DNA of 64,000 bases, taken from positions 128,001-192,000 of the forward strand of contig CAWAOD010000005.1 of assembly GCA_963783575.1 (NCBI GenBank), in the 5' to 3' direction. Positions 5,498 to 46,475 of the stretch are shown here, piece by piece; within the stretch, counting starts at the first letter, position 1, and every line of letters starts with the position of its first letter. Under the pieces are notes generated by a model. The model was not told the DNA's origin. It worked only from the letters and a program-made list of their open reading frames with translations, and searched no databases. Source of the DNA: an uncultured Spirochaetota bacterium. GTDB taxonomy: Bacteria; Spirochaetota; Brevinematia; Brevinematales; JAOACQ01. The position numbers and the translations under genes are program-made.

Positions 5498-6593
5498 ATG
5501 AATTATTTTGATAAAAGATTGAAACAGGTTCAAAACCTCATCTCAGATGATCAGGCTATTTTTATAAACAAACAGGAAGAAGTTTTTTATTTTACCGGCT
5601 TCACTGGTGAAGACGCATATCTCTTTATAACCAGAAACCAGGTATATTTTATTACAGACTCGCGTTTTACCGAGCAGGCGGAACAGGAAACAAGGATTAA
5701 ATTTAACATTGAAGAGATTAAGCCTGATTATAAATTGATTCATATTCTAAAAAGTATTATAAAAGATCATAAAATAAAATATATTTTATGTTATAAGAAA
5801 GAAATTGATGCTGATTTTTATGAAAATTTAATAGAATCTCTGAACTCAAACAATAAAGAGTCCAATGAAAGGATTACAATACAAAATTCGGATGTCGTAA
5901 AGGATCTCCGTATTTGTAAAGATGAATTTGAAATAGAGATTATGAGGCAGAATATTATTATGACCGAACTGGGTTACCATTATATAATCCGGTTGATAGA
6001 GGAAGGAAAAAAGGAAATTGATATCGCAGCCGAACTGGAATATTATATAAGGAAAAACGGGGCATTGAGGCCTTCTTTTGATACAATTATAGCTTCGGGC
6101 CAGAAGAAGCACTCTACCGCATGGAAAAGCAAGCGAAAAGATTATAGTACAAAACGAAGTCATCATCCTGGATTTTGGCATACTAAAAAACGGATACTGC
6201 TCAGACTTTACAAGATCGTATTATTTTGGTAAAATAATCGGCCCGAAAATCAAGGAGATCCATTCGGTTGTTCTGGAAGCTTTAAAAGCCGCCGAAAGTA
6301 TCGTAAAACCTGGGATTAAAGCCAGCATTGTTCATAATGCGGCTTATGATGTAATTAAAAATGCCGGATATGAAAAATATTTTCTACATTCGACAGGTCA
6401 TGGGGTAGGGCTTGAAATTCATGAACTGCCCAGGATTTCAGCATCCGATGATACTTTACTGAAAGAAGGTATGGTTTTTACGGTGGAGCCGGGTATTTAT
6501 CTTCCCGAAACCGGCGGAATCCGCCTTGAAGATATGGTCGCGGTTACTAAAACCGGATACGATTTACTGACCCAGTGCAGCTATGATCTATAG
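5498..6593 (+). CDS. Xaa-Pro aminopeptidase (M24B), frameshifted near 6100
   Basis: YFTGFTG...ITDSRF N-domain. After SFDTIIASG the M24 motifs continue in another frame (RSTLPHGKAS, DFG, GYCSDFTR, HSTGHGVGLEIHE, TVEPGIY, GGIRLEDM) to TAG at 6591-6593. Confidence 0.9.
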
Positions 6594-27181: not shown

Positions 27182-28218
<1,037 letters not shown>

Positions 28219-28271: not shown

Positions 28272-29098
28272 ATGGGTAGTTTAACGGCACTAATTGGATC
28301 TGGTTCAATAGGTGTCGCAATCGCGAGAAGAGTGAGCGCCGGAAAGCATATTCTGCTCTGTGATTTACGGCAGGAAAATGCGGAGGCAGCAGCCGCAGTT
28401 TTGAGTAATGCGGGATTTGAGGTCAGCACTGCGGCCGTCGATGTATCATCGCGCAAAGCAGTTGAGAATCTTGCTGAAAAAGCCTCCAGCCTTGGCGATG
28501 TGACTGGAGTTATTCACGCTGCCGGCGTTTCGCCTTCGCAAGCTCCGGTAGCTGCGATTTTGAAAGTGGATTTGTATGGTACAGCCCTCGTACTTGAAGT
28601 ATTCGGAAACGTCATTGCACGCGGAGGTTCCGGTGTAGTGATTGCTTCCCAATCGGGGCATCGTTTGGGCGCTCTCACGGATGAACAAAATAAGCTTCTT
28701 GCGACAACGCCGGCCGATCAGCTTTTATCGCTTCCAATGCTCCAGCCGGACCAGGTGAAGGATACTTTGCACGCTTATCAGCTCTCAAAACGCGGAAACG
28801 CTTTGCGAGTGATGGCAGAAGCCGTGAGATGGGGTAAGCGGGGCGCCCGTGTCAATACAATCAGTCCCGGCATTATTATCACTCCACTCGCGAAAGATGA
28901 ACTAAAAGGCCCTCGTGGAGAAGGTTACCGCCGCATGATTGAGGCTGCCCTGTCGGGAGAGCAGGTACTTCTGACGAGGTTGCCAATGTCGCGGCGCTTC
29001 TTATGGGGCCGGACGGCGCTTTTATCACCGGCAGCGATATTCTGATGGATGGCGGGGTTACTTCTTCGTTCTTCTTTGGGGAGCTTGCCCCGAAATGA
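28272..29098 (+). CDS. SDR-family oxidoreductase, frameshifted near 28945
   Basis: HAAGVSP, YQLSK, NTISPG; C-terminus CPVGRAGTSDEVA...FITGSDILMDGG continues in another frame to TGA 29096-29098. Confidence 0.85.
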
Positions 29099-29594: not shown

Positions 29595-30535
29595 GTCATT
29601 TGATAACATTTGAAACTTCAGTTAGTATTAATGTTAGACCTGTCGTACTTTCTTTAATAATCCTTCTTGCGGGGCCGTCCTCAATCCAGAATATGGAATT
29701 CCGGGTTATTTGGCCAATTAATTTATCAAGAAAAGGATCTGTTACAGATGAAGTAACTTTTATAGTCTTAAATGTTCCTGCCGGAGTTGATATTGTTTCA
29801 TGACCCTAAGACATGTATAGTAAATGGTATCGTTTCTTTTAAAAGCAATGGAATAAAAATATAACTCGTTCCATTATCATTGATATCTAAGAAACGGGGA
29901 AGGAAAATGCTGGAACTACTGTCCCCAAATGGGTACCCTTTCTTAATGGGGATACGGCTTTTTTTTGTACCATTGACCCCATTTACACGATCTACCTCAG
30001 TATAATGAATCATTGATGATTTATCATCATATAAATAATCCATCGATAATGGTCCTTTATAATTATTATTTGTTTCAAGATAATGGAAGTCTTTATGCAT
30101 AGCGACCGATGAACAAAGCGATAAAGATATCTGATACCAATCAGGAAAGTTTTTATAATCAGCAATTTGTTTTTCTCCATAGCTGAGATACTGAATGTAT
30201 TCATAGATATATACTATTTTTCCCCATTTGGGGTTATTCTCATAACGGGATATTAAAGTCCAATTATAAATGTTATCACCTCCATTAAAGCCTTTATAAA
30301 ATAAATATTCTCCATCGTCAATATTTGGGTTGGAACCTTTTTGCGGGACATTATTTCCCGTGGAACAGGAAACGAAGATGATTGTGAGAATTGTCATTAT
30401 AATAAAAATTAAAAGATTTTTCGGGCCCGGTAGGGCGAAAATACTGCCTCTTTTTATATCAAGTTCCTCTCCATTTATAACAGTTGTATTTTTATAGGAT
30501 TTCATTAATCCATTCAAATTAAAAAATATATTCAT
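29595..30535 (-). pseudogene. Lipoprotein-like gene with frameshift near 29800, preceded in frame by an ABC-ATPase N-terminal fragment
   Basis: LNGLMKSYKNTTVINGEELDIKRGSIFALPGP resembles an ABC ATPase start; followed by IIFVSC lipobox. Confidence 0.45.
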
Positions 30536-30553
30536 ATTTAACCTCTCTATTCT

Positions 30554-31090
30554 TTATCAGCCGATCACTGTAACTTTTGATAAATCAGCATCCATGCCTT
30601 TAAGAACTGCATAAGTGATTTAATCCATTGACGCACCGTCAAAGCATATAGTTTTAACAGCACGGAAGTATTTTTTTGAAAATACTATTGGTGAGCAGAA
30701 TGAAACATTTTTTATCAGGGAATTTCTAACAGATGCCCCCTCCAGAAATGACTTATCAAAACAACTCCAATAAATGTCTGATTGTCAAAACTAATTCCAA
30801 GTGCATTTTTCAAACCGGCTTTTTCGAAGGTCCATCATTATCAGTTGTGTTTTATCAAGTTTTGCTCCGCTGAAAATAACATCGCTTGTGCCGGATTTAT
30901 CAAAACGAGTGCCTTTCAGGATTGTATTCCTGAAACTGCGGTTGTTCAAATCAGACATAAGCAGGGATGCTCCCGAATGCTTCGCATTGTCAATTTGTAT
31001 TACTGACATTGCTGATGTTGAATGAGCTGCCGGTAAGGTCCGCCCCGGAAACATCCTTAAAGTCTGTATCCGGAAGGTTGCTTGCCGATC
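30554..31090 (-). pseudogene. Degraded pentapeptide-repeat protein gene
   Basis: Fragments such as SDLNNRSFRNTILKGTRFDKSGTSDVIFSGAKLDKTQL in several frames. Confidence 0.6.
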
Positions 31091-31096
31091 TTGCGG

Positions 31097-31492
31097 CTAC
31101 CCGCGGGCTGAAGACTTGTTCAGGGCCACGGCGGCCAGAATAAGGGACTTCAAAGCTTCCCAGTTCAGCTTGTCCCCCTCGTGAAAGTCGATGGCGCGCC
31201 TTACAGTTCCATCCTGGTTGAACAGGCCGTTAGGATCCTTTAAAGAAGCTCCCTTGGCAAAGGTCATCTTCACATGATCCTTGTACGTCTCGCCTGTGCA
31301 GATCATTCCGTTGTCATACCAGACCGGAGTCCCTCTCCACTTCCACTCCTCCATTACTTCGGGGTCTGCCTCCTTAATCAGTGCGCGGAGCCGGGAGAGC
31401 ATCTCGCCCCTCCAGCCGCCCAGTTCAGCAATTCTCTCGTCTATAAGTTGGGATGGCTGTTTTATGCCTTTCGTAGCCTGTTCCTTTTCCAT
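31097..31492 (-). CDS. DUF1801 (YdeI-like) protein
   Basis: EEWKWRGTPVW, ETYKDHVKMTFAKGASLKDP, RRAIDF. Confidence 0.88.
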   Translation of the reverse strand: MEKEQATKGIKQPSQLIDERIAELGGWRGEMLSRLRALIKEADPEVMEEWKWRGTPVWYDNGMICTGETYKDHVKMTFAKGASLKDPNGLFNQDGTVRRAIDFHEGDKLNWEALKSLILAAVALNKSSARG

Positions 31493-31559
31493 AGAAAAAC
31501 CTCCTTCAAAAGAAGAAAATCTTAAAGCCTGGCTTCAGGGTAATCGGGATTCTCCGGGG

Positions 31560-31931
31560 TTAACGAATTCCTGCGATGAAGAAAGCACAGACATCTGATA
31601 GAAACATCAGGATTGCCGAAGATAGGTGGATATTCGGAAAAGCCTTTCCTGTTTTCCCGGATGCCAGCATCAATATTCCTGTAACCAGTTGGGTCAGAAT
31701 CGCCAAACCCATTATAGCAACCGGAATCCAAATTCCCTCCGTTGCTTTCATCGTGAAAAGCCCATACACTATAAAGCCAAAACCCACTGTGAACCATACA
31801 AAGAAAAAAAGGTGAATGACCAGTTTCACTTTACCGTAAGGTTTTCCTGCCCTGTGAAGAAGAAGTCCGAAGATCATAGCCGTTATCATCAGAATTCCTT
31901 CAGCCAGGAAGGGTAACTGCGTATTATTCAT
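31560..31931 (-). CDS. Small four-TM membrane protein
   Basis: Four hydrophobic segments, GKPY and conserved His; GGAGG RBS. Confidence 0.65.
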   Translation of the reverse strand: MNNTQLPFLAEGILMITAMIFGLLLHRAGKPYGKVKLVIHLFFFVWFTVGFGFIVYGLFTMKATEGIWIPVAIMGLAILTQLVTGILMLASGKTGKAFPNIHLSSAILMFLSDVCAFFIAGIR

Positions 31932-32751
31932 AATAAAATTTCCTCCTAACTCAGGTGTTGCTAATTCATTAATTAATATTAATAATCCCGTTTTAAGATG
32001 TCAAGGGGAATGGTATTTTCAACAAGCATGCCGCTTGACCTTAAAGACACAAAAGGCTTTATTACTTTTTGGCAAAAAGGAATCAAAAGCTTTATTACTT
32101 TCTTTCCTGAATTCGCCAGGAAAGAAAGTAATCAAAGAAAGGAGCGACCCCTTCGTATGGGCACCATTTCTGCAACATCGTGTTGCTGCCGAACTAGCGT
32201 TCGGCTATCTTCATAGTCTATGAAAAGTTCTATTGAACATCCTGTTCTCAAGGTAAGTAAATAATAGATTATTTATTAAGGGGGAATGATATATTAAATA
32301 AAAGCTTTTAGAATTTAGGTGTTGTTATTCGAGATAATTTGTTAAAGCTGTCTTTTAGTAACCGCCTTGTCGCAGTCCCTCCGTGGACTGACTCCTCGGC
32401 TGAAGCCATCCCTGGCTTCAGTATAATAATACAATCGATTATTTTTCAGGAATAACAACGATTGTTATATTGGGTTCTCTTTTAATCATACAAAAGTTCA
32501 ATCAGAAATGGCGCTCATACTGCGGGGGGCAAGGAAGGAACGCCGGAATGAATACACTAGCTTAATATTTTAATAAGTCTGAGTAAGAAAGGAACAGCCA
32601 GAATAAAATAACCGATTCTTTCATCATAAAACAAAGGAATTTGATACTTTATTTTTAAATTATGTTTGGACGGCTGTTCTATATAACTATGGATGAAATG
32701 TACACAAATATTATAAGTTTTTGTAAATACAATAAAACCTAAAATTGTAGA

Positions 32752-34350
32752 TTATTTTTTGGCCATTAATTTTTCATTATTAATTCTTTTTTTGACATCA
32801 TCCTGATTAAAATCCGGTGGAGTTGGTTTAAAGCCTGTTTTATCCTCTAATTGGTAATCCTGCGTTTTTAATTGATAATCTCTTAATTCACTAATATCGA
32901 TTTCTTCAACAAGTAAAACATTATTACTCCCACCTTTGATTTGAAGAATATTTTTCCCCTCAGTTTTAAAAGGTTTTGTAATTCTAGAATCACCAAATTG
33001 AGAAGTATTGGATTGTAAAAAATAGCAATGGAGGTCTCTACTAGTTGCTTCTACAATATTTGAATAATAACTTGTATCTTTATTCCATTCTGAAGCAAAT
33101 ACTAAATCAATTTTTGATTTGAAAATACTTCGATGTACTATATCTGCAAGCTCAAAGCAATAATATATTGAAAAATAAATATTATGCCAATTTATTAAAT
33201 GATATAAATAATTTTTTTCATCAGGTATGGTAAAATGATATCCAGAAATCATTTTCTTTTCTGATGGAGAGTAATGATTCTTTATTCTAAATATAGGTAA
33301 AATATCTTTTCGTCCGTTTATTTTTATGGGAATAAAGCAAATAAGTATATTATAAATTGTATCATTTACTTTAATATGTTCTGATCCTATAATTATCATA
33401 ATTTCATTTATTGCTGAATTTCTTGCCACATCATAGATGTGATCCAAAGACAGACAACTTTCTGGGAAAAGAATTGTATCACAATGTTGTTCATGTGCCG
33501 ATTTTAAAATTTCAACTACTTTATCATAACTACTATGCTTTGAAATTCCTGATTTAATATTTTCTTCAATTTCATTTTCTTCAATCTTAATATTAGCAAT
33601 TCCAACTTTTATTTTATTTTTTTTGTTACTATATATATGAATTTCTAAAATATTAATTTTAGAAATAAATGTAGAATTCTCATTGTATATTTTTTCCTTT
33701 AAATCTTCATAATATTTTTTATCAATAATATTATCGATTTCTTTTTTATTAATATTTGAATAATCTGAGATATTATTATAATTTATCTTATTGTTTGATA
33801 GAAAATAGCACCTTAAAGAATCATCTAAAAAATTATTTTCTTCATAAATACCTTTGTTATCTCTTATTTTTCCTGAGAATAATTTTTCATAAAATTTCCA
33901 AGTAATGATTTCATATAATTTTATATTACGCGGAGAAAAAACTAATGAAAATAGATTAATTTTTGTTTTTTCTTTAATTAGTTCATCATAACTTTTATCA
34001 TAAGAAAAACCTTTATATTTAACAGCATCAAGAAAACCTAGGATTGGTTTCCTTAAAAATTGATATCTAATAAGATTGGAATGTGCAAATATAGATATAT
34101 AATTATTAATTTCATGAATATCAAATTCCCAATTTCCTCCATATTTTATGTAAGTATGGACAAAGTTTTCATTAGCTATAATTTCAAATTTAGTCCTATT
34201 TCTTTGTATAAAGTTATAATTAAGTGAAGTTGCCATTTCAAGGCTTAATATTAAATGTTCAAAAAGAGCGAAATAAATTTTATCACTAATATCTATATTA
34301 TCTGCTTTAATTATTGGAATTTCTTTACAGATTTTTTCAAAATTCTCCAA
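32752..34350 (-). CDS. C-terminal half of an RT-nitrilase protein: helical region plus carbon-nitrogen hydrolase domain
   Basis: Glu-Lys-Cys triad contexts LFPESCL, RIKNHYSPSE, YYCFELAD; NTSQFGDSRI. The frame stays open upstream into the RT ORF (YYQLWEKLFTFFVI). Confidence 0.88.
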   Translation of the reverse strand: MENFEKICKEIPIIKADNIDISDKIYFALFEHLILSLEMATSLNYNFIQRNRTKFEIIANENFVHTYIKYGGNWEFDIHEINNYISIFAHSNLIRYQFLRKPILGFLDAVKYKGFSYDKSYDELIKEKTKINLFSLVFSPRNIKLYEIITWKFYEKLFSGKIRDNKGIYEENNFLDDSLRCYFLSNNKINYNNISDYSNINKKEIDNIIDKKYYEDLKEKIYNENSTFISKINILEIHIYSNKKNKIKVGIANIKIEENEIEENIKSGISKHSSYDKVVEILKSAHEQHCDTILFPESCLSLDHIYDVARNSAINEIMIIIGSEHIKVNDTIYNILICFIPIKINGRKDILPIFRIKNHYSPSEKKMISGYHFTIPDEKNYLYHLINWHNIYFSIYYCFELADIVHRSIFKSKIDLVFASEWNKDTSYYSNIVEATSRDLHCYFLQSNTSQFGDSRITKPFKTEGKNILQIKGGSNNVLLVEEIDISELRDYQLKTQDYQLEDKTGFKPTPPDFNQDDVKKRINNEKLMAKK

Positions 34351-34373
34351 AAAATATTTATCATTATCCGTAA

Positions 34374-35846
34374 TTACAAAAAATGTAAATAATTTTTCCC
34401 ATAATTGATAATAAAAATAATATTCATTCCTATAAAAAATGATGTTAATAATTTTGCCTCTTTCAAACTATCTTTTCCTGGATTATTCTTATAATACTCT
34501 ATTTTTTTAGCCAGGTAAATTGATAGTCCGTATCGTGTTTCTTTGAAATCCTTAAGTGTTTTTAATTTTCCTTTACTGTCATCAAAAATAAATTCATACA
34601 TAGCATTATCTGAATCAATTTCCTCATTTTTGTTATCTGGTAATGATCTAAATTCACTACTGCTTTTTAATAATTCTTCTTTAAACTTATTAATTACTGT
34701 TGAGGGACCATACCTATCAAAATAAAAAACTTGTATTTTTTCTGTTTGTAAAAACAAGTTGTTTTTTTTAATTTTTATTAAGCCCTTATTATTTGGATCA
34801 TCCTCAAATATTTTATCAAACCTCTCATTGATATAATTTTGTAAATTTATATTATCTTTTATATAATCAGTTATTACTAATGATAAGTCATCAACATATC
34901 TTCCATAATAAATTGGTTTTATATTTTCAATTAAATCTTGATCAAAGTCTTTAAGGTACCAGTTACATAAAATACTAGATGACATCAAACCAATTGGTAA
35001 AAAAATTTTTTTGTCATTAACAATATGAGGTTTAAAATCAGTATTAAATTTATATTGATATACTTCATGAGTTTTTATAAAAATTTGTACCAAGGTATTT
35101 AAAACTTTATCTTTTTCGTCATATTTTAGAATATTGACATGCAAGTCATTTAAATCTAATCTTATACTGTGATAACAATCCTTAATATCTAAATTAACAA
35201 TTGAAATGCTATTACCTTTTTCATGTAGATCTTTTGCTTTATTAATGCAATTATCTCTCCATTTTTGATATTGTTTAATATATGGAATAAATAAAGGCCC
35301 GTCATATTTTATGTTTTTACTAGTTGTTAATAATAACCTATTACCATAAACACAATCATTAAAGTCTTTTTCAAGTTTGAACCCTATTTTTAAAATCCAA
35401 AGCACATTTAATATATGAATTTCAATTGGAGCATCAATAAAATATACTTCTTTCTTAATTTTATAATTATTCGTGTTTTTAATGTTATAAGTAATATTAT
35501 TATTTGTCTCTTCATTATTTTCTGTTTCATTAATATCATTATTTTTCATGAATGATTTTGGCAATAGGAATATTCTGATATCACGAAACAATTCATCAAA
35601 GTACGTTAAATTATTATTAATTAAATTTTCATATAAACTTTTTAATCTATGAATTAGAATTGGTTCATTAGTTTTAACCATTTTTCTATTTAAAAATGTC
35701 ATAAATGCTCTTCTAAACAAACTAAAAGAATCTCCTGATTCAAATATTGCCATTCTTTTTCTCAATACTAAATTAGTATTGTCATAATATACTTCCTGCT
35801 TTAGTTTTTTATATGCTATCATTAAATCAGATAATTCAATTGACAT
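34374..35846 (-). CDS. UG/Abi class-3 (DRT1-like) reverse transcriptase, N-terminal half of the RT-nitrilase fusion
   Basis: AYKKLK, DAPIEIHILNVLWI, YGNRL, QYQKWRD, LDIKDCYHSI, LPIGLMSSSILCNWYL, catalytic YYGRYVDD; AGGAG RBS before ATG. Confidence 0.9.
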   Translation of the reverse strand: MSIELSDLMIAYKKLKQEVYYDNTNLVLRKRMAIFESGDSFSLFRRAFMTFLNRKMVKTNEPILIHRLKSLYENLINNNLTYFDELFRDIRIFLLPKSFMKNNDINETENNEETNNNITYNIKNTNNYKIKKEVYFIDAPIEIHILNVLWILKIGFKLEKDFNDCVYGNRLLLTTSKNIKYDGPLFIPYIKQYQKWRDNCINKAKDLHEKGNSISIVNLDIKDCYHSIRLDLNDLHVNILKYDEKDKVLNTLVQIFIKTHEVYQYKFNTDFKPHIVNDKKIFLPIGLMSSSILCNWYLKDFDQDLIENIKPIYYGRYVDDLSLVITDYIKDNINLQNYINERFDKIFEDDPNNKGLIKIKKNNLFLQTEKIQVFYFDRYGPSTVINKFKEELLKSSSEFRSLPDNKNEEIDSDNAMYEFIFDDSKGKLKTLKDFKETRYGLSIYLAKKIEYYKNNPGKDSLKEAKLLTSFFIGMNIIFIINYGKNYLHFL

Positions 35847-36015
35847 AACTTGCTCCTAGTTAATTATTACCAAACTCTAAAATCTTTGTTTTCTTATATT
35901 ACAACCATTCATCTTATTAAAAAATTGATGGGGAAAAAAGCGAAAGGATGCGTGTCTTAGGAGCTTTAAGCCGAATGGTTAAAATTATAAAAATGAATCT
36001 CCATTACCCCCTATC

Positions 36016-36056
36016 AAAAAAAAGAGGGGATAAACTGCAATACGATTTATCCCCTC
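36016..36056 (-). terminator. Rho-independent terminator (minus strand)
   Basis: GAGGGGATAAA...TTTATCCCCTC stem with an A8 tract on the plus strand (U8 on minus). Confidence 0.75.
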
Positions 36057-36191
36057 AAAAGATTATATGGAAATGATAAACTAATTTACCAGGGTAGCAA
36101 TAAATGAAATTCCCATACCTGTCACAAACAGATTTCCCATAGAGAGGCTTGAAGATTACCTTTAATGAAAATTCATTAAAGGAAGGCAGGA

Positions 36192-37745
36192 ATGGTGAAA
36201 AATATTATGTATCAGGACATAAAAAAACTGAAACTTTTGGGGAAAAGTAAAAATGGTGTATCCCGGGAACTGTCAATAGATATTAAGACAGTCCGAAAAT
36301 ATTGGGCTATGAACGATTCCGAATACCAGAAAAGCCTGATGGAATTCTCTTTCCGTGAAAAAGAATTCGAAGGAATAAAAACAGACATATTGAAAGTATA
36401 TGAAAAGAATGATTACATCCGGCTGAATATGTCTGCTGTGTATGACTATTTATTGGAGGTAAAAGGCAAACTACCGGCGAATGAAAATACGATGAGGAAT
36501 TTCGTACATTACCTGATTGAAAGCGGGCAGCTTACCTTGAATGAAAAGCGCCGGTATTACACAAAAGTGCCTGACATGCCATATGGAAAGCAGCTCCAGC
36601 TTGATTTCGGTCAATATACCGACAGATATGGCAGAAGGTATTACATATTTGCCGCGGTGTTATCCGCCAGTCGTTTTAAGTATGCGGCCCTCCAGGAGAG
36701 GCCATTCCGGACAGAAGACCTGATCAATCATCTGTTGGACTGTTTCGCATATATGGGCGGGATACCGCATGAACTTGTCATCGATCAGGACTGCACGATG
36801 GTTGCGAGTGAGAACTCAGGCGATATCATCTACACGAAAGACTTTCAGTATTTCATCGGGGAAATGGGTCTTAAAATGTATGTGTGCCGACCTGCTGACC
36901 CGGAAAGTAAGGGAAAGATTGAAAACGTAGTCAAATTCATCAAGCACGGTTTCTTCTCAGTCCGGGAGTTCAACAGTTTAATGGAAGCGGAAGAAAGCCT
37001 GATGAAATGGCTGGAAAGAAAAGCCAACGGGAGAATATCCCAGGCTACAATGAAAATACCGCTGATAGAGATTGAAACGGAAAGACCATATCTCCAATCT
37101 GTCAGGAATTCGATATTCCGTAAAGACAGGATAGGAGCAAGGGAAGAGCGCAGTGTAAGCGATAAATGCCGGATCGCAGTTGATGCAAGCCAGTATGATA
37201 TTCCCGAAAAATACAGGAACGGTTCGGTGGACATCTACAAGACGGGCAGTCGGCTTTTTGTCTTTGACAGGATAACGGGAGAGCAAATCGCCGAATACCG
37301 GCTTTCAGTGATTCCGGGGCAGATTGTAACCAACAGGGCAATGATCCGGGAAATGGGAAAGACTGTGCAGTTATTGAAAGAAGAAGTAAGCGGGTACTTT
37401 GATATTCCCGGCTGGAAGGATTTTCTTGAATGTAATTTCAGGAAGTTCAATCGTTATGTAAGGGACCAATGTCTTTCCGGAAGAAAATACTTCAGGGACA
37501 AGATAATTGATACCGGGAAGCTTACACAAGCGATCTCAAACTGCCTGGAGAGTGATAGTTATTCCATGAAGGATTTGTGGGATAATTACCTGAACTGTTT
37601 TATAACAGAAAAGGCAGAAATACCCTTGAATGTTGAAAAGATTGTCAGGCCTTCAGTGAATCCTGAACACTATCTTGAAGTAGCTAAATCAGACATCGGG
37701 AAATACCAGAGTTTCTGTGACTCCATCGGGGGCCGGCAATGTTGA
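36192..37745 (+). CDS. istA: IS21 transposase
   Basis: N-terminal HTH, QLDFG, GGIPHELVIDQ, PESKGKIE. Confidence 0.93.
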   Translation: MVKNIMYQDIKKLKLLGKSKNGVSRELSIDIKTVRKYWAMNDSEYQKSLMEFSFREKEFEGIKTDILKVYEKNDYIRLNMSAVYDYLLEVKGKLPANENTMRNFVHYLIESGQLTLNEKRRYYTKVPDMPYGKQLQLDFGQYTDRYGRRYYIFAAVLSASRFKYAALQERPFRTEDLINHLLDCFAYMGGIPHELVIDQDCTMVASENSGDIIYTKDFQYFIGEMGLKMYVCRPADPESKGKIENVVKFIKHGFFSVREFNSLMEAEESLMKWLERKANGRISQATMKIPLIEIETERPYLQSVRNSIFRKDRIGAREERSVSDKCRIAVDASQYDIPEKYRNGSVDIYKTGSRLFVFDRITGEQIAEYRLSVIPGQIVTNRAMIREMGKTVQLLKEEVSGYFDIPGWKDFLECNFRKFNRYVRDQCLSGRKYFRDKIIDTGKLTQAISNCLESDSYSMKDLWDNYLNCFITEKAEIPLNVEKIVRPSVNPEHYLEVAKSDIGKYQSFCDSIGGRQC

Positions 37746-38488
37746 AGATAAGAGAACAAATCATAACTGCGCTTACAACTCTCGGGTTGAAGGGTATGAT
37801 AAAACGGATTGATGAGGAAATTGGTGAGGCTGAAAAGGCAAAAGAGTCTTATCTGAGTTTTCTGCAGAGGCTGCTTTCTCTGGAATTGAATTATAGAGTG
37901 GAAAAACGTTTTCAGCGGAATATGGCAGGAGCACACTTCCCGGTCCGCAAAGATGTGGAAGGTTTTAATTTTGAAAAAGTGAATGGAATATCTAAAATGG
38001 ATGTTTCACAGCTATTGGATTTCTGCTGGATTGATAATCATCATAACCTGTTGTTCTTTGGGTCTCCGGGGCTGGGGAAAACGCATCTGGCAATTAGTAT
38101 CGGAATCCGGGCAGTTGAAAAGGGATATATTGTCTGCTTTGAAAGGATGACTACTCTCATTAAGTTTCTGAAAACGGCGGACATCCAGAGAAGCTCTGCT
38201 TTCAGGCTGAACCGGATGATGAAGTCACACTTATTAATCATTGATGAGATAGGTTACACACCTATCGAAAAGAAGGAGGCAAATCTATTCTTTAGTCTTG
38301 TAAGTGAATTGTATGAAAAGACATCAATTGTGATAACATCGAATAAGGGATTTCAGGATTGGGCTGAAATGATGGGAGACCCGATTATGACAACAGCTCT
38401 TCTGGACAGGCTTTTACATCATTCAAATATTTATAACTTGAGCGGAGAATCTTACAGAATACAAAATTTGAATAAGGAGGTTGAGTAA
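37739..38488 (+). CDS. istB: IS21 ATPase helper
   Basis: GSPGLGKTHLA Walker A, LLIIDEIGY, LLDRLLH, GESYR. Confidence 0.95.
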   Translation: MLKIREQIITALTTLGLKGMIKRIDEEIGEAEKAKESYLSFLQRLLSLELNYRVEKRFQRNMAGAHFPVRKDVEGFNFEKVNGISKMDVSQLLDFCWIDNHHNLLFFGSPGLGKTHLAISIGIRAVEKGYIVCFERMTTLIKFLKTADIQRSSAFRLNRMMKSHLLIIDEIGYTPIEKKEANLFFSLVSELYEKTSIVITSNKGFQDWAEMMGDPIMTTALLDRLLHHSNIYNLSGESYRIQNLNKEVE

Positions 38489-38734
38489 CCATTCTTGCCT
38501 CCTCCTATGGGAAAAACTCTTGTGAAGCATATGGGAAATACTCTTGTGGAAGGGGTGGGAAATTACCCGAGTACAGGTATGGGAAAAACTCTTGACATTT
38601 CCATTATAGCACAATCGCAGCGTTAATGTCAACAGTTAAACCTGCAACTCGCGGAATGACGGGTCTTCTTTTCACCTGCACATCTTGTCTCAATACTTCG
38701 CGGAATGATTCTGGTTAGCTTGGAATTTTAGTAT

Positions 38735-38971
38735 TTCCGAACTGCAAAAAAGTACCTCAGAGGTACCTTTTTGTACTTCCGAACAGGAAAAAGGTACTTC
38801 GGAAGTACTAATTAATACCTCAGAACAAGAAAAAGCCAGTTCTGAAGTACCTTTTTCTTGTTCTTAACTTTGGCTCCGGGTTCTGAACCCGGAGTTTCTT
38901 GTCTTTTTCTCCGGCGTCCGGGTTCTGAAGTATTAAAAGCATGTTCGGGGGTAATTAACCGGAGTTTTGAA
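38735..38971. repeat. 21-bp-periodic array of TTCNGAA-like palindromic cores with variable 14-bp linkers (~12 cores)
   Basis: Units begin at 38735, 38756, 38777, 38798, 38819, 38840, 38861 (20 bp), 38881, 38902 (degenerate), 38923, 38944 and 38965. Confidence 0.85.
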
Positions 38972-38993
38972 CATGGTGAAAGTTTTTAAACCA

Positions 38994-39475
38994 GTGCTGG
39001 AAAAAGTTTCATTTGCAAAGGATTAACACAAAAATTGAATATAAGGTGCTATACAGCAGGTGAAATTATTAAAGAACAAAAGAATTTTGATAAGTAAATG
39101 ATATAAATGATAATCAAAGATTACTTATTGAAGGCATAAAATCACAAATAGATAAAAATCAATATTGTCTTCTGGATGGTCATTATACACTAATAAACTT
39201 AAAAAATGAAATAGTCAGAATTCCATTGGAAACTTTCAGATTAATTTCTCCAATAGCTTTATTATTGAAAATATGTAATGTGAAAGTCATTAAAAATCGT
39301 TTAAGAGATAGAGACGGAAATAATTATGATGAAGATTTATTAAATCGGATGCAGGAAGAAGAAATTTCTTATTTTGAAGAAGTTTCCTAACTGCTTTCTA
39401 TACCAAAAGTTATTATATCCGATAATCAAATTGAAGATATTATCAAATTTCTCATTGCGGATGGAATAATTAATG
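38994..39475 (+). pseudogene. Adenylate-kinase-like P-loop protein, disrupted
   Basis: SAGKSFICK...YTAGEII, frameshift near 39092, DNQRLLI...LLDGHY...IKNRLRDRD...MQEEE, in-frame TAA at 39388-39390, then runs into the start of the PIN-GNAT gene. Confidence 0.75.
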
Positions 39476-40990
39476 AGAGTCTTATTAGACACTAATATTA
39501 TTATTCACAGAGAAGCAAATCGGGTCATTAATCAAGATATTGGAATACTTTTTCATTGGTTAGATAAACTACATTATGAGAAATGTATTCATCCTTATTC
39601 CATCGATGAAATCAGAAAATATCAAGATCAAGATGTTGTTAAAACATTTGAAGCAAAAATTAAAAATTATAATGAATTGAAAACTATTTGCCCCGATAAG
39701 CCGGAAATTATTAAATTAGGAAACCAACTTGATCAAACTGATAATGATAAAATAGATACATCTATTCTTAGTGAATTATATTCAAATAGAGTTGATTATT
39801 TAATTTCAGAAGACAAGAAAATCCATAATAAAGCACGTCAATTAGGAATTTCTCAAAAAGTTTTTTATATTAATTCTTTTCTTGAGAAATTGACATTTGA
39901 AAACCCGGAATTTAAAGATTATAAGGTATTATCAGTTAAAAAAGAATATTTTGGTAACATTGACTTATCAGATACTTTTTTTGATACATTTAAAGAAGAC
40001 TATCCAGGATATGAAAAATGGTTTAATGGGAAGGCCAATGAAATCGCATATGTTTGCCATTCTGATCAAGGTAAGATATTAGCATTCTTATATTTGAAAA
40101 TAGAAAATGAAAAAGAAAATTATTATGATATTGAACCAATATTTTTGCCTAAAAGGCGGCTAAAGATTGGTACATTTAAGGTCATTAATAATGGGTATAA
40201 ATTAGGGGAACGATTTTTAAAAATTATTTTTGATAACGCTCTTAATTTCTCAGTACAAGAAATTTATGTAACAATTTTTAATAAACGGCCTGAACAGCAA
40301 AGTTTAATAACTTTACTTGAAAGTTTGGGATTCAGACATTACGGTATAAAAACTTCTTCCGGCACAGAACAAGTATATGTAAGAGATTTTAGTAAAAAAG
40401 TGAATATAACTGAACCAAGGATGACTTTTCCTTTTATATCATCAAATCAAAATATATTTATAATTCCTATTTATCCACAATACCACACAGAATTATTTCC
40501 AGATTCCATTTTAAGTACTGAATCACCTTATAATTTCGTTGAAAACGAACCTCATAGAAACGCAATTAAAAAAGTATATATATCAAGATCAATTGAGAGA
40601 AATTTATGCTCAGGCGATCTTATACTATTTTATAGAACAAAATATAACGGGCCAGCTTATTTTACATCCGTTATTACCACAATAGGTGTCGTTGAAAGCA
40701 TAAATGACAATATAAAAGATGAAAATGAGTTCATAAGTCTTTGCAGAAAAAGAAGCGTTTTTTCTGATAACGAATTAAAAAGTCATTGGAATTATAACAC
40801 AAGAAATAAGCCTTTCATTGTTAATTTTTTATATGTATACTCTTTTCCAATTCCAAGAATTAATCTTAAGCAATTAACAGAATATGGCATTATATCTCAA
40901 GCTCCAAGAGGATTTGAAAGAATTGAGAAGTCATGTTTTTTAATACTTTTAGAGGTTACAAATGCACAAAGAAGTTTTATTGTCGATTAA
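39473..40990 (+). CDS. PIN-GNAT-PUA/ASCH-like multidomain protein
   Basis: VLLDTNIII...DKID...LISEDK PIN; FFDTFKEDYPGYEKWF, LKIGTFKV, GYKLGERF, IYVT, LGF GNAT; IPIYPQYHTELFP...KKVYIS...GDLILFYRT C-terminal domain. Confidence 0.8.
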   Translation: MRVLLDTNIIIHREANRVINQDIGILFHWLDKLHYEKCIHPYSIDEIRKYQDQDVVKTFEAKIKNYNELKTICPDKPEIIKLGNQLDQTDNDKIDTSILSELYSNRVDYLISEDKKIHNKARQLGISQKVFYINSFLEKLTFENPEFKDYKVLSVKKEYFGNIDLSDTFFDTFKEDYPGYEKWFNGKANEIAYVCHSDQGKILAFLYLKIENEKENYYDIEPIFLPKRRLKIGTFKVINNGYKLGERFLKIIFDNALNFSVQEIYVTIFNKRPEQQSLITLLESLGFRHYGIKTSSGTEQVYVRDFSKKVNITEPRMTFPFISSNQNIFIIPIYPQYHTELFPDSILSTESPYNFVENEPHRNAIKKVYISRSIERNLCSGDLILFYRTKYNGPAYFTSVITTIGVVESINDNIKDENEFISLCRKRSVFSDNELKSHWNYNTRNKPFIVNFLYVYSFPIPRINLKQLTEYGIISQAPRGFERIEKSCFLILLEVTNAQRSFIVD

Positions 40991-41372
40991 ACCAACGTAT
41001 GTTCAAAGAATATTTGAAGGCAGTAAAAAATATGAATTTAGACGAGTTATTTTCAAAGAAAATAATATAGATAAGATTATTGTTTATGCCTCCGCACCAA
41101 TAAGTAAAATTGTAGGAGAATTTACAATAGAAAATATTATCTATGACAAATTAGATTATATTTGGGAATTAACGCAAAAAGAATCAGGCATATCTAAAGA
41201 TAATTACTATGATTATTTTGATTCCAAACATTATGGCTATGCAATTAAAATAAGTAAATACCTGAAATACGAAAATCCGATATGTTTAAAAGAAATTGGA
41301 ATTACTCCCCCTCAATCATTTATGTATATCAGTCTTAATACTCTTTGTGAAAATATCAAAATAGCGTTCTAA
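40962..41372 (+). CDS. ASCH-domain protein
   Basis: LLSIKPTYVQRIFEGSKKYEFRR (GxKxxExR), YASAP, PPQSFMY. Confidence 0.9.
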   Translation: MHKEVLLSIKPTYVQRIFEGSKKYEFRRVIFKENNIDKIIVYASAPISKIVGEFTIENIIYDKLDYIWELTQKESGISKDNYYDYFDSKHYGYAIKISKYLKYENPICLKEIGITPPQSFMYISLNTLCENIKIAF

Positions 41373-41400
41373 AATTGTCAAAATAAAAGGAGCCATAGCA

Positions 41401-42006
41401 TTGACTAATAATACAGATAACGATTACGCCCTTTTTGTATCAGAATTAAAGAATATTTTAAATGATAAAGAAATAATTGATGAAAGTGAAATAAAAAAAG
41501 TTTTTAAAATAGAACGATATGATAAAGGAAAATTTTTTGTGATGGAAGGTAATGTACCCGAAAAAATGGGCTTTATTACGAAAGGTCTTATGAAATATTA
41601 CTATATTGATTTTGATGGAAATGAGTGGATAAAGCACTTTGCTGCAGAAAAAAATATTGTTGCGTCTTATTCCAGCTTCCTGAATCAAATTCCTTCTCCC
41701 TATAGTATAGAAGTAATGGAGGATACGAGTATTTTGTCGATTAATTTTCATTCATATATCAATAAAATAAATAATTCGATGAAATGGTGCACTATTGCCA
41801 GAAAATACACCGAAAGAATTTATTTTGAAAAAGAAAAACGAGAAGCCAGTTTTTTGAAGGAAGACGGCAGTGAACGGTATTCCATTTTTTTGAAAGAATA
41901 TAAACACCTTATCGACAGAATCAGCATGAAGGACATAGCGTCTTTTTTAGGACTGACACATGTTTCCTTATCCCGTATAAGAAATAAAAAACAGGGTAAA
42001 AATTAA
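41401..42006 (+). CDS. Crp/Fnr-family regulator
   Basis: cNMP-binding beta-roll and IASFLGLTHVSLSRIR HTH. Confidence 0.88.
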   Translation: MTNNTDNDYALFVSELKNILNDKEIIDESEIKKVFKIERYDKGKFFVMEGNVPEKMGFITKGLMKYYYIDFDGNEWIKHFAAEKNIVASYSSFLNQIPSPYSIEVMEDTSILSINFHSYINKINNSMKWCTIARKYTERIYFEKEKREASFLKEDGSERYSIFLKEYKHLIDRISMKDIASFLGLTHVSLSRIRNKKQGKN

Positions 42007-42082: not shown

Positions 42083-43235
42083 ATGGACATTTTTAAAGAG
42101 ACATCGATCGCCGGGATCAAATTGAAAAACCGGATCATCCGGTCGGCAACCCATGAATACTTTAATAAACCAGTACCGGAATTGAAGGAAATTTATACCA
42201 GACTTGCTCTTGGCGGAGCCGGAGCCATAATTACGGGTTTGACTGGAATTGACCCGGAACAGATTGGGTTTCCAAAGATGCCATTGTTATACAATAAGGA
42301 AGAACGTAATGAATGGAAGAGTTTTTTGAAGGATCTTGCGCCGTACAAAACCCCAATTATCCTGCAACTGACCCATAGCGGGGGAAAATCGATAGGAAAA
42401 AATGGAAAATCACCTTCTCCTTATAAGTATTATTTTAAGGAAAGTGATGAGATCACGCAGGAACAGATAAAAAAGGTAATAAATGATTTTGCGATCTTCG
42501 ATCGAATTGGCAAAATCGGCCGGTTTTGACGGCGTCCAGATACAGGCTTCACACGGTTATCTGTTATCCGAATTCCTTTCTCCGCGATTGAACCGGAGGA
42601 CAGATGACTGGGGCGGAAACACTGAAAATCGCTTCAGGATCATCAGGGAAATTATTTCAGAATCCAGGAAAAGGGTCGGCGATTTTCCCTTACTTGTAAA
42701 AATTTCCGCTTATGATACGGATGAAGGAGGTATGAGGATAGAAGAATCGATAAAGATCGCAAAATTGCTGGAAGAGGCAGGATGCGATGCCTTAGAAATT
42801 TCATGCGGTAACCTCAACGGATTCGATACAATAAGATCTGAAAAACCGCCGGTCGAAATGATTTTAAATCTTCCCAATTACAGAAACCTTCCTCCTGAAA
42901 AAAAACAATTTGCCGCAATCGAAATTAATAAAAATTTTATTCAGCACGAGAGATCGAAAATTATAATGTCGAAGCCGCATCAGAAATTAAATCGTCCGTT
43001 TCCATGCCGGTCATTGTAGTGGGCGGAATCCGAAAACTTGATAAAATAAATGAAATTATTAGTATCAGGAAAAGCAGATTTCGTTTCAATGTCCAGGCCT
43101 TTCATCATTGAACCGGATATCGTCAACAGATTTAAAAACGGACAAAATAAATCATCCTGTATAAATTGCGCCTACTGCTCGCCTGGTTTAGCCGACAAAC
43201 TGAAATGTTCATATGGAAAGTTTGTGCCTGATTAA
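42083..43235 (+). pseudogene. NADH:flavin oxidoreductase (old yellow enzyme family) split by three frameshifts
   Basis: LKNRIIRSAT, AGFDGVQIQASHGYLLSEFLSP, NRRTDDWGG, VVGGIR, SRPFIIEPD, CINCAYC in different frames; breaks may be sequencing errors. Confidence 0.8.
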
Positions 43236-43725: not shown

Positions 43726-45112
43726 CTATTTTATTAAAAAGCTGTTTTTAACCTTCGTACTAATTCCGAGTTCCTTCATTTTCTTATATAAATCCTGCCG
43801 GTGAAGCCCTATCTGGCTTCCTGTCCGGGTTATATTGAAATTGTTCTGTTTCAGGTAATATATGATGAATTCCTTCTCAAATTTTGAAGATATGATTTTC
43901 TTCGCCTGCGTTATATTGGCAGGCAATGTTTTGAAATCATAATCCTCTCCGGCGGCCGTTTCATTGTCATCCCCGGTTGATCCCTTATTTTCATTTTGCA
44001 GGTCGCCGGTTTCAATCCATTCCCTTTTGCTGAAAATAACCGATTTTTCAACTGTATTTCTTAGTTCCCTGATATTTCCGGGCCATTCGTATTCCTGAAA
44101 ATAATCAAGCAATTTTTCATCAAAGCCGATGATATTTTTTTCATATTTTTTCGAAAAATCTTTCAGGAATACCTGTGCAAGCGGTTTGATTTCATCTTTT
44201 CTTTCTCGCAGTGGCGGGATGTGAATTCTTATAAGATTCAAACGGTAAAGCAAATCTTCGCGGAATTTATTATTTTCGACCTCATTTTCGATATTTTTAT
44301 TGGTAGCGGAAATAACCCTCGTTTTGATTTTGACGGGAAGACTGCCGCCGACCCTGGTAATTTCATTTTCCTGCAGGACCCTGAGGAATTTTGCCTGCAG
44401 ATCCACAGGCATTTCGGCGATTTCATCGAGAAAAATGCTTCCTTTATCGGCCGATTCAAAAAAACCGATTTTTCTTTCGCTTGCCCCGGTATATGATCCT
44501 TTCTCAGCGCCGAAAAGGGCGCTTTCTATAAGGTTTTCGGGAATGGCGGAACAGTTTACGGGAACAAAATTCCCGGTTCTTTCGGAATACTTGCTGGATC
44601 ATCTTCGCTATTACTTCTTTTCCTGTTCCGGATTCCCCTGTTAACAAAACCGGAACATCTGTTTTTGAAATGGTTTTTACCTTTTCAATTATCGAATTCA
44701 TTACGGATGAAAAAAAATAGCCGTCCTGTGGTATTGTGATCCCTGATTTTAAAATAAAACTTTCTTTGATATGGCTGACGCGGTTTAACAATTCGTCATT
44801 ATCAAAAGGTTTTTTTACATAATCATAGGCTCCGTTTTTTATCGCTGTAATCGCCAGGTTTTCATTGCCGAAGGCGGTTATGAATATGACCTGGGTCAGT
44901 GGATATTGCCGTTTAATTATTGAAAGAAGCTCAAGCCCGTTCCTGCCCTTGAGCTGGTAATCAAGGATGATTATTTCAAAAAAGTCCTTTTTTATAATTG
45001 CAAGGCATTCCTCGAACGAGTTCGCGAAGACCGTATCATAGCCGTTATGCTTCAACAATGATGAAAGCGCGATGCACAATGCCTTTTCATCATCCACTAT
45101 AAGTATTTTCAT
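43726..45112 (-). CDS. Sigma54-dependent response regulator (NtrC/AtoC type), frameshifted near 44590
   Basis: ILIVDDE receiver, [21 protein letters not shown] (GAFTGA variant), [16 protein letters not shown]-terminal HTH. Confidence 0.88.
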
Positions 45113-46475
45113 TTTTTGCTTCACCTTTATAAAAAGATAGTTTGAATACGGTCTTATTCCTGGTGCTTCCGACAAGTTCAATATTTCCCATATGGTCGTT
45201 CATTATTTCCTTGCACACGGAAAGTCCCATGCCGGTACCGTTGTTTTTCGTGGTCCAGAACGCATCGAAAATTTTATCCTTGTCGCGGAAATCTATCCCG
45301 GTGCCGTTATCCTCTATGAAAATATTAACAAATCCAACGGTTTCATCGGAATAAACCGTGATGGTTGTGCAATCAGCTTCTATCGCATTATAAAGCAGGT
45401 TCAGGAAAATCTGGCGGACCTGGTAATTATTAAAATTTACCGTTGTATTCTTCAGCGGCTCGCTCAAAACCAGCCTTATGTTTCTCTTCTCAAAGTCGAA
45501 CATCAGCAATGTTTCAAGCGAGAGGAGCAATTGATGAACACCTATCCGGGAGACATCCTGCTTTTCATCCTTCCTGTAGGTTTTCAAAAACGATTCCGAG
45601 AGTTTTTTTATTTTCCCAAGCTCGTCTGATGTAATCTCTAGGAACTGCCTGACCTCATTTTCCTGCATTATTGAAAATCTGTCAAGCAATTGCTGGTTGA
45701 AGGATTGGATTGCAGTGACCGGGTTCTTTATTTCATGGATGAGGCTGCTAGTAAGTTTCTCAATGATCGTCTTTTTTTCATATATCTGAGTTTTTTTCAG
45801 CGTGTCAAGGTTAATGTAGTATTCATAATCCGATTCAAGCATATTTTTTTTGTAGGAAAGATAAAGTGTGAGTACCGACGCCAAAGCGAGAGAAATAGGC
45901 AAAGTGTCAAGCAGTAACATTTTGTTTTTTATAGTAAAAATAAGGTTAATGAAAACATAGGGGCTGACAGCAACTATTATTATAAAAACGAGCGGCAAAT
46001 CTTTTTTTGATTTTGCTTTTTTCCCGTCCGGTTTCACAACATAGTAGGCGAGAAGAGCAGACCAGAAGATAAGATGATAAATTACTCTGAAAAGAAGGTA
46101 CCCTTTAATAAATACCTGTCTCATAATTGTAAGGTCAATGATGAGTGAAAAAACCGGCACCAGTAATATGGTAAGGTATATTAATTTTAAAGTGTTCTTT
46201 TTATTCACGATTATATAAATGAAAGCAAAAGATGGAATGAAAAAATGGATTTTTTGGGAAAGATCAATATAGGAAAAGGCAGAGTTTTGTAAAATGCCCT
46301 GAGTGTTGTTATTGAGAGTATAAAAAAACACATAAAGAAAAACGGCGAACCAAAGCAATGCATAAATCCTTGTGGAAATAACCCTGGTTCCCATCAGGAA
46401 TATTGTTATCGAGGTGATGAAAATTATACCGCATGAAAAAATGTTTATGAATGCAATTATACTCACGTTATCCAT
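45090..46475 (-). CDS. Membrane sensor histidine kinase
   Basis: Multi-TM N-terminus; HEIKNP, NLLYNA, DNGTG, GTGMGL. Confidence 0.92.
   Translation of the reverse strand: MDNVSIIAFINIFSCGIIFITSITIFLMGTRVISTRIYALLWFAVFLYVFFYTLNNNTQGILQNSAFSYIDLSQKIHFFIPSFAFIYIIVNKKNTLKLIYLTILLVPVFSLIIDLTIMRQVFIKGYLLFRVIYHLIFWSALLAYYVVKPDGKKAKSKKDLPLVFIIIVAVSPYVFINLIFTIKNKMLLLDTLPISLALASVLTLYLSYKKNMLESDYEYYINLDTLKKTQIYEKKTIIEKLTSSLIHEIKNPVTAIQSFNQQLLDRFSIMQENEVRQFLEITSDELGKIKKLSESFLKTYRKDEKQDVSRIGVHQLLLSLETLLMFDFEKRNIRLVLSEPLKNTTVNFNNYQVRQIFLNLLYNAIEADCTTITVYSDETVGFVNIFIEDNGTGIDFRDKDKIFDAFWTTKNNGTGMGLSVCKEIMNDHMGNIELVGSTRNKTVFKLSFYKGEAKNENTYSG

Follow-up and report, generated by a model that had tools for sequence, protein, structure and literature searches.

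We propose that two adjoining open reading frames (ORFs) in the window (the whole 64,000-nucleotide stretch of DNA analysed here), one for a reverse transcriptase (RT) and the other for a nitrilase, are the halves of a single, partnerless UG5-large gene that is likely to be intact in the living cell, and which we predict to act as a single-gene abortive-infection defence against phages. Comparison with fused homologues confirms that the two, as judged from their sequences, represent one gene minus one base; the loss of that base is probably an artefact of assembly.

One gene in two reading frames

The 5′ half (34374..35846, minus strand) is a 490-aa ORF encoding the RT domain and a connector, the last 12 codons of which are out of frame. 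The 3′ half (32752..34467, minus strand) comprises 571 open codons for a helical domain and the nitrilase domain, within which an ORF with a TTG start (32752–34350, minus strand) would specify 532 aa. A putative ribosome-binding site, AGGAG, can be read 6 nt upstream of the RT ATG (35853..35857, minus strand). The RT half matches the Pfam profile RVT_1 above its cut-off and carries YVDD at residues 317–320 (34898–34887). In the other half, the motifs FPES, RIKNHY and YCFEL (starting at 33468, 33288 and 33162 respectively) fall on invariant columns of the homologue alignment, and provide the catalytic Glu (33462–33460), Lys (33282–33280) and Cys (33159–33157), together with a second Glu (33153–33151). 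A preliminary description of this DNA had reported an RT ORF with YVDD and a nitrilase ORF with an intact E-K-C triad; both are present, the triad being extended to E-K-C-E, and the AT-richness it ascribed to them is equally apparent, with a GC content of 22.3% and 23.1% in the two halves against 36.9% for the contig. The gene retains 112 of 118 highly conserved positions (the homologue median is 116, and 28 of 120 homologues retain 112 or fewer); the six altered positions include a Pro, found in 119/120 homologues, that sits four residues past the catalytic Glu.

Comparison of the RT half with longer proteins gave 409 matches among 7994 candidates, from which the 120 listed, of 932–1121 aa, were used as the homologue set. 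On a profile of these fused proteins the RT half covers positions 1–475 and the other half positions 467–1005, such that the two are colinear over its whole length. The junction lies within a motif, F-x-G-x6-x-x-x-W-E-[KR], whose Gly is kept in 116 and whose Trp is kept in all 120 homologues; as the first frame encodes the Gly and the second the Trp, the break must fall between them. When an N was tried at each position and the outcome scored against the 120 homologues, every one of them favoured a one-base insertion over a deletion, with the best place for it at 34413–34415 (mean score 104.8; no other place exceeded 99.5). The missing base can therefore be assigned to a T5 run (34413..34417, minus strand, reading A5 on the plus strand) where the helical domain begins. 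This run precedes the invariant WE[KR] by five codons and corresponds to residue 478 of the protein and to profile position ~474. The preliminary description had joined the ORFs by adding a T to this run, to give one protein of about 1030 aa; the single missing base, the run and the protein (1031 codons once repaired) all stand, but the identity of the base is less certain, since homologues mostly have a polar residue at the affected codon (E 55, D 16, T 13, S 11, N 8 and K 6 among the 120) and an added T, giving Phe, is just one option among several.

A split at the junction is not characteristic of the family. Single ORFs make up 52 of 63 genome loci; six others are naturally split at profile positions 616–624 (RT ~700 aa, nitrilase ~410 aa) and five are broken elsewhere. 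The fusion of homologues at this place, as raised in the preliminary description, is borne out by 95 of the 96 loci reaching across it (62/63 from genomes and 33/33 from metagenomes, a further seven of 40 metagenome loci falling short of it); the sole discontinuous locus has four breaks, one of them some 25 positions past the junction. Of 149 proteins related to the RT half, 96 are fused; the others end at profile positions 560–700 (29), at 465–500 (two) or elsewhere (22), with their truncation ends scattered and no pile-up at the junction; sporadic breaks elsewhere in the family (P0216 versus P0217, P0219 versus P0220) are scattered too. Three 582-aa proteins that start at the junction were considered as a possible sign of a shared split. 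This was rejected, as the one traced to its DNA (L109) is a contig-edge fragment, beginning 164 nt from the contig end; its 97% relative (L110) is likewise at a contig edge, and relatives at 87–93% are fused.

Assignment to UG5-large and the stand-alone form

On profile and tree evidence we assign the gene to UG5-large (DRT11 type), a class-3 UG/Abi RT-nitrilase, and not to DRT1/UG1. The PADLOC model RT_UG5-nitrilase (PDLC03780) is the best model for both halves, with 341 bits for the RT half (profile 20–448) and 368 bits for the 3′ half (profile 428–901), whereas Drt1a yields 55 and 35 bits for the halves, against 1317–1890 for true Drt1a. A careful tree of RT domains, with 28 rows (19 UG5 besides the window RT and DRT11, four UG1 and three group II intron RTs, and no retron or DGR rows), places the window RT, DRT11 and the other UG5 on one side of a 98/98 branch, and UG1 and the group II intron RTs on the other; a quick tree of 75 rows agrees, with a support of 94. 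The three intron RTs are YADD-type proteins of the same genome, taken as such by their motif and copy number, and an identity of the window RT with this group was rejected, as they make up a 100/100 branch of their own. On the RT half, generic and retron-type RT profiles reach 20–46 bits against 341 for UG5, the retron comparison being one of profiles and not of tree rows. DRT1/UG1 was rejected as an identity on its low Drt1a scores, on its separate RT branch, and on length (1031 codons, against 1200–1300 aa for UG1 as given in PMC9226505). Accordingly, of the earlier placement among class-3 UG/Abi RT-nitrilases such as DRT1, the class is upheld by PADLOC and by the RT tree, and UG5-large takes the place of DRT1/UG1.

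DRT11 from Sinorhizobium meliloti RMO17 pSymA carries YVDD, and its length of 1005 aa and its residues K833, C876 and E878 were confirmed in its record. The window gene is like it in being a single RT-nitrilase gene of ~1000 aa with YVDD, the Lys, the Cys and a Glu two residues further on, and in having no membrane partner, the same best PADLOC model, the same side of the RT tree and defence neighbours; it is unlike it in being only 25% (RT) and 28% (nitrilase) identical, and frameshifted in the assembly. It falls within an AT-rich UG5-large set with named members mostly from Bacteroidota, its nearest relatives being 35–45% identical. The class-3 RT-nitrilases DRT5L and DRT5S (Neville et al., PMC13275509) can also be likened to it, by description and not by sequence; our reading of DRT5L as UG5-large is taken from the name, the term ‘UG5’ being absent from the main text of that paper. 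With DRT1 (UG1) it shares an RT, a helical domain and, at the C terminus, a nitrilase in one chain. UG5-small, as described in PMC9226505, likewise presents two ORFs, RT then nitrilase, and no membrane partner, but is split after the helical domain (RT 630–700 aa, nitrilase ~400 aa) and not at residue 478; an identity with UG5-small was rejected on the position of the break, at profile ~474 against 616–624 for natural splits.

A fold model of a fused homologue (P0020, not the window gene) forms one compact chain (pLDDT 88.6, pTM 0.90) with nitrilases and amidases as its closest structural matches, and the break maps onto the start of its helical domain. The DRT1 entry 9YFD is absent among the Foldseek matches listed for this model. 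By sequence, solved structures gave a single match to the RT half (E 0.42) and none to the C-terminal half.

That no DRT1b-like membrane gene lies directly downstream, as previously described, holds true: there is no ORF of at least 40 aa within 800 nt of the gene, and the first begins 820 nt downstream, where the DNA is more GC-rich, and has no PADLOC match. No PADLOC match was obtained for the 123-aa membrane ORF at 31560–31931. The idea of a hidden partner, itself disrupted by a frameshift, was rejected after a profile of five partner proteins, run against all six frames of the genome, found nothing (best E 0.34). Amongst 85 related loci whose 3′ ends are complete and which leave room behind them, a small membrane-protein ORF stands directly behind the gene in eight and is absent from 77; for comparison, Mestre et al. 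(PMC9226505) list a membrane partner for 31 of 299 UG5-large members, and ~18% of DRT1 genes are described with the partner Drt1b, most being without (PMC13275509). The stand-alone form is therefore the commonest in this clade, and the suggestion of a stand-alone variant is retained as to the lack of a partner and given up as to novelty, because 77 of 85 related loci are alike and DRT11, also without a membrane partner, is already reported to protect S. meliloti at low multiplicity (Sanchez-Nieto et al., PMC13436386).

Genomic setting and the cause of the break

Approximately 220 nt upstream of the RT gene sits an IS21-family element (istA, istB; 36068..38603, plus strand) with a TTATA target duplication; between the two, a perfect hairpin of 11 bp with a T run behind it (36024..36056, minus strand) is, from its form, a likely terminator, although it is missing from our terminator scan, in which the loop limit was 8. 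Beyond the element lie the relic of an ATP-binding-protein gene (38990..39495, plus strand), whose P-loop is truncated and which carries a frameshift and in-frame stops, and a PADLOC candidate defence pair, PDC-M11A and PDC-M11B (39473..41372, plus strand; 712 and 158 bits), both frames of which are open. Together with this pair the RT gene makes a small AT-rich defence islet, within which the relic, having at least three lesions in ~500 nt, gives evidence of genuine decay. The gene was probably acquired horizontally, being AT-rich and absent from the 60 relatives searched. An integron cassette was rejected as its vehicle: arm profiles of the genome's 15 attC-like sites match 13 and 21 places genome-wide, none of which is in the window. 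No phage matches to the gene were found, and Rfam over 30000–42000 returned no relevant match, just a chance one to a miRNA; the upstream hairpin does not exceed shuffles (z -1.14), and a promoter scan, with 49 hits versus 36 ± 7 in shuffles, does not usefully do so either. Repeats at 32090–32531 belong to a dispersed family of ~30 copies, and 5 kb off a MITE-like repeat interrupts an aldo-keto reductase gene.

The assembly comprises 18 contigs and 4.9 Mb, and is 89.85% complete. Of 348 ORFs taken from 400 kb of a relative (G004), 158 have an orthologue-like match here, and 13 of these conserved genes are frameshifted, with 14 breaks between them; in the reverse test, none of 116 G004 loci is frameshifted (Fisher p 0.0008). 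EF-G, which is whole in 4/4 relatives, is fragmented here; SecA, whole in the three relatives (of four) that have a match, is likewise broken, and further frameshifted genes look like rpsG, polA, uppS and smc. Since a living cell could not do without such genes, the assembly must contain indel errors. The error rate, of ~0.09 per kb, corresponds to 0.28 breaks per 3.1 kb (95% range 0.15–0.47) and to a chance of ~24% that such a break would arise from it alone. In a rough calculation, an artefact comes out at 50–97% under the priors assumed; where a real pseudogene is given a prior of 5–20%, the figure is 65–90% at the central rate and 50–94% over its range. The T5 run by itself does not point to an artefact, because breaks are not enriched at homopolymers (4 of the 14 touch a run of at least four, against a background of 22–31%). 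Against an artefact, ten of the 14 are extra bases and only four are missing bases, and multi-copy IS elements show few indels among their copies in coding parts; a paralogue-based count of frame changes (109/951 loci) was discarded, as IS elements, genuine pseudogenes and queries that are themselves broken are lumped together in it. As for close alleles, the C-terminal half was found in none of 60 related genomes, and there is no second copy in its own genome. Weighing the local decay against the rough calculation, we consider an assembly artefact to be the probable, and no more than probable, source of the missing base.

The alternative that carries most of the remaining weight, and which we nonetheless think unlikely, is a real and recent deletion, such that the strain would carry an inactivated UG5-large gene, a common fate of defence genes that are costly and sit on decaying islets; the RT half would then stop before the helical domain, leaving no working defence. 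The true decay of the neighbouring ATPase gene speaks for it, as do the proximity of IS21 and the MITE-like insertion, the sporadic breaks seen elsewhere in the family, and the composition of the gene itself, which has 56 runs of at least five A or T and a few near-invariant residues changed. However, the break is the only one in 3.1 kb, all of the catalytic residues and all but six of the highly conserved positions are kept (features that favour an artefact), and the error rate of the assembly is sufficient to account for a single break of this kind.

Two further readings take the sequence to be correct, and we give little credence to either. It is most improbable that the gene is recoded, through ribosomes slipping by -1 at T_TTT (34416) or polymerases slipping on T5, which would yield a minority full-length protein beside an RT-only product and so keep a toxic nitrilase scarce. 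A T_TTT tetramer does stand exactly at the best-scoring break, where a -1 slip would make the same protein as an added T, and an AGGA lies ~13 nt upstream; yet this AGGA codes for the Gly kept in 116/120 homologues, no canonical X_XXY_YYZ heptamer precedes the invariant Trp (the sole one, at 34383, comes after it), the downstream structure is not stable (z 0.26, -1.33 and -0.26), and 0/96 junction-spanning loci break at this place. Polymerase slippage involves runs of ~9 nt, and T5 is shorter than such slippage-prone runs. A limited literature search found no description of programmed frameshifting in class-3 defence RTs; if recoding were true, it would amount to a built-in brake on a toxic effector, with little full-length RT-nitrilase and much RT-only protein. 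More doubtful still is the view that RT and nitrilase are naturally the separate products of two genes, as in UG5-small, for which one could cite the possible TTG start at 34350 and the natural splits known in 6/63 loci of the clade. This reading is largely refuted: those splits come ~140 positions later and leave an RT of ~700 aa, the PADLOC UG5_small RT model crosses the break (P0001, 5–456; P0002, 458–590), a start at 34350 would drop WE[KR], whose Trp is invariant, and the traced 582-aa protein proved to be a contig-edge fragment with fused close relatives.

Proposed mode of action and wider meaning

Returning to the reading of one gene, broken by the assembly and probably whole in the cell, we consider it probably anti-phage by analogy with its characterised relatives. 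DRT1, DRT5S and DRT5L are reported to prime protein-linked DNA synthesis without a template in vitro; DRT1 is described as needing both of its active sites and as causing abortive infection via the nitrilase, the linked DNA driving formation of tetramers and dormant filaments whose activation needs a phage helicase (PMC13275509). In the account given there, filaments are shown for DRT1 (UG1) only, and its priming residue, Ser402, is not conserved in other class-3 DRTs. For DRT11, both active sites are likewise reported to be needed, and no ncRNA is described (PMC13436386).

Synthesising these reports, we take it as the likely mode of action that the 1031-aa protein would itself serve as the primer for DNA synthesis, with no template, and that the covalently attached DNA would keep oligomers dormant but armed, as in DRT1. 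Release of the nitrilase by a phage component would follow; the freed enzyme would either break down an essential metabolite that bears an amide or amine or produce a toxin, and in doing so would stop the infected cell. Similarity to DRT11 being only 25–28%, this is a mechanism borrowed from distant relatives, and the nitrilase substrate and phage trigger of the class would be better studied in intact members.

The case also has a bearing on surveys of defence genes, in that error-prone assemblies cause counts to miss or misfile large single-gene systems; the window gene, for instance, might end up annotated as UG5-small or as a pair of hypothetical proteins. As read here, it is instead a new, divergent member of UG5-large, at most ~45% identical to anything found. 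The family is a large one, of roughly a thousand clusters (996 at 50% identity, E 1e-10), but is rare in the source phylum, where five of 400 other genomes searched hold a match, one of them full length.

Split and divergent UG5 relatives

Natural splits of the UG5 gene were found at six of the loci fetched for RT-nitrilase relatives (L032, L042, L045, L050, L056 and L077), in Pedobacter, Sphingobacterium, Chitinophagaceae and others, with an RT of ~700 aa and a nitrilase of ~410 aa. The model for the fused UG5-large form outscores RT_UG5_small in both of the split loci that were scanned, and in the tree the three split loci that were included sit among the fused genes; fission at these six loci is possibly independent of that in classic UG5-small.

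An RT-nitrilase-like protein of 1167 aa (L105:1-4232, on a Leptospira plasmid; also L096 and L097) lacks the usual YxDD motif and is matched by the UG5 models in its C-terminal half only, a partial match that recurs in open frames of similar length in two genomes of the phylum; its gene is followed by one for a 3'-5' exonuclease. Some UG5-large genes are accompanied by a membrane partner of 220-226 aa (L085:7091-7771; also L061, L078 and L090), which weakly matches the model for Csx27, a CRISPR type VI-B accessory protein (E 1.5e-6).

The islet beside the RT gene

Window positions 38990-41372 hold the relic of an ATP-binding protein, followed by intact PDC-M11A and PDC-M11B, the former with a PIN-like N-terminus. 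On a Nitrosophilus plasmid, genes for acetyltransferases are followed by a homologue of this ATPase. Directly upstream of the relic is a cluster of three imperfect 42-nt direct repeats with interleaved inverted repeats (38726-38930), which occurs once in the genome.

Dispersed repeats and interrupted genes

A dispersed-repeat family with several hairpins, one member of which is at 32090-32531, has ~30 copies genome-wide; in the arrays on contig C5 it adjoins insertion elements and cassette genes. A 143-nt MITE-like repeat (27561-27703; ~20 copies in the genome) interrupts an aldo-keto reductase gene (27212-28218), the break in which is a real insertion and not a frameshift.

Apparent frameshifts affect genes for a Xaa-Pro peptidase (5498-6590), a short-chain dehydrogenase (28272-29045), an NADH:flavin oxidoreductase (42083-43235) and a sigma-54 response regulator (43726-45181). 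The assembly of the same-genus genome G001 is probably error-prone too, since its rpoB (G001:C18:29091-32532) is frameshifted near its start.
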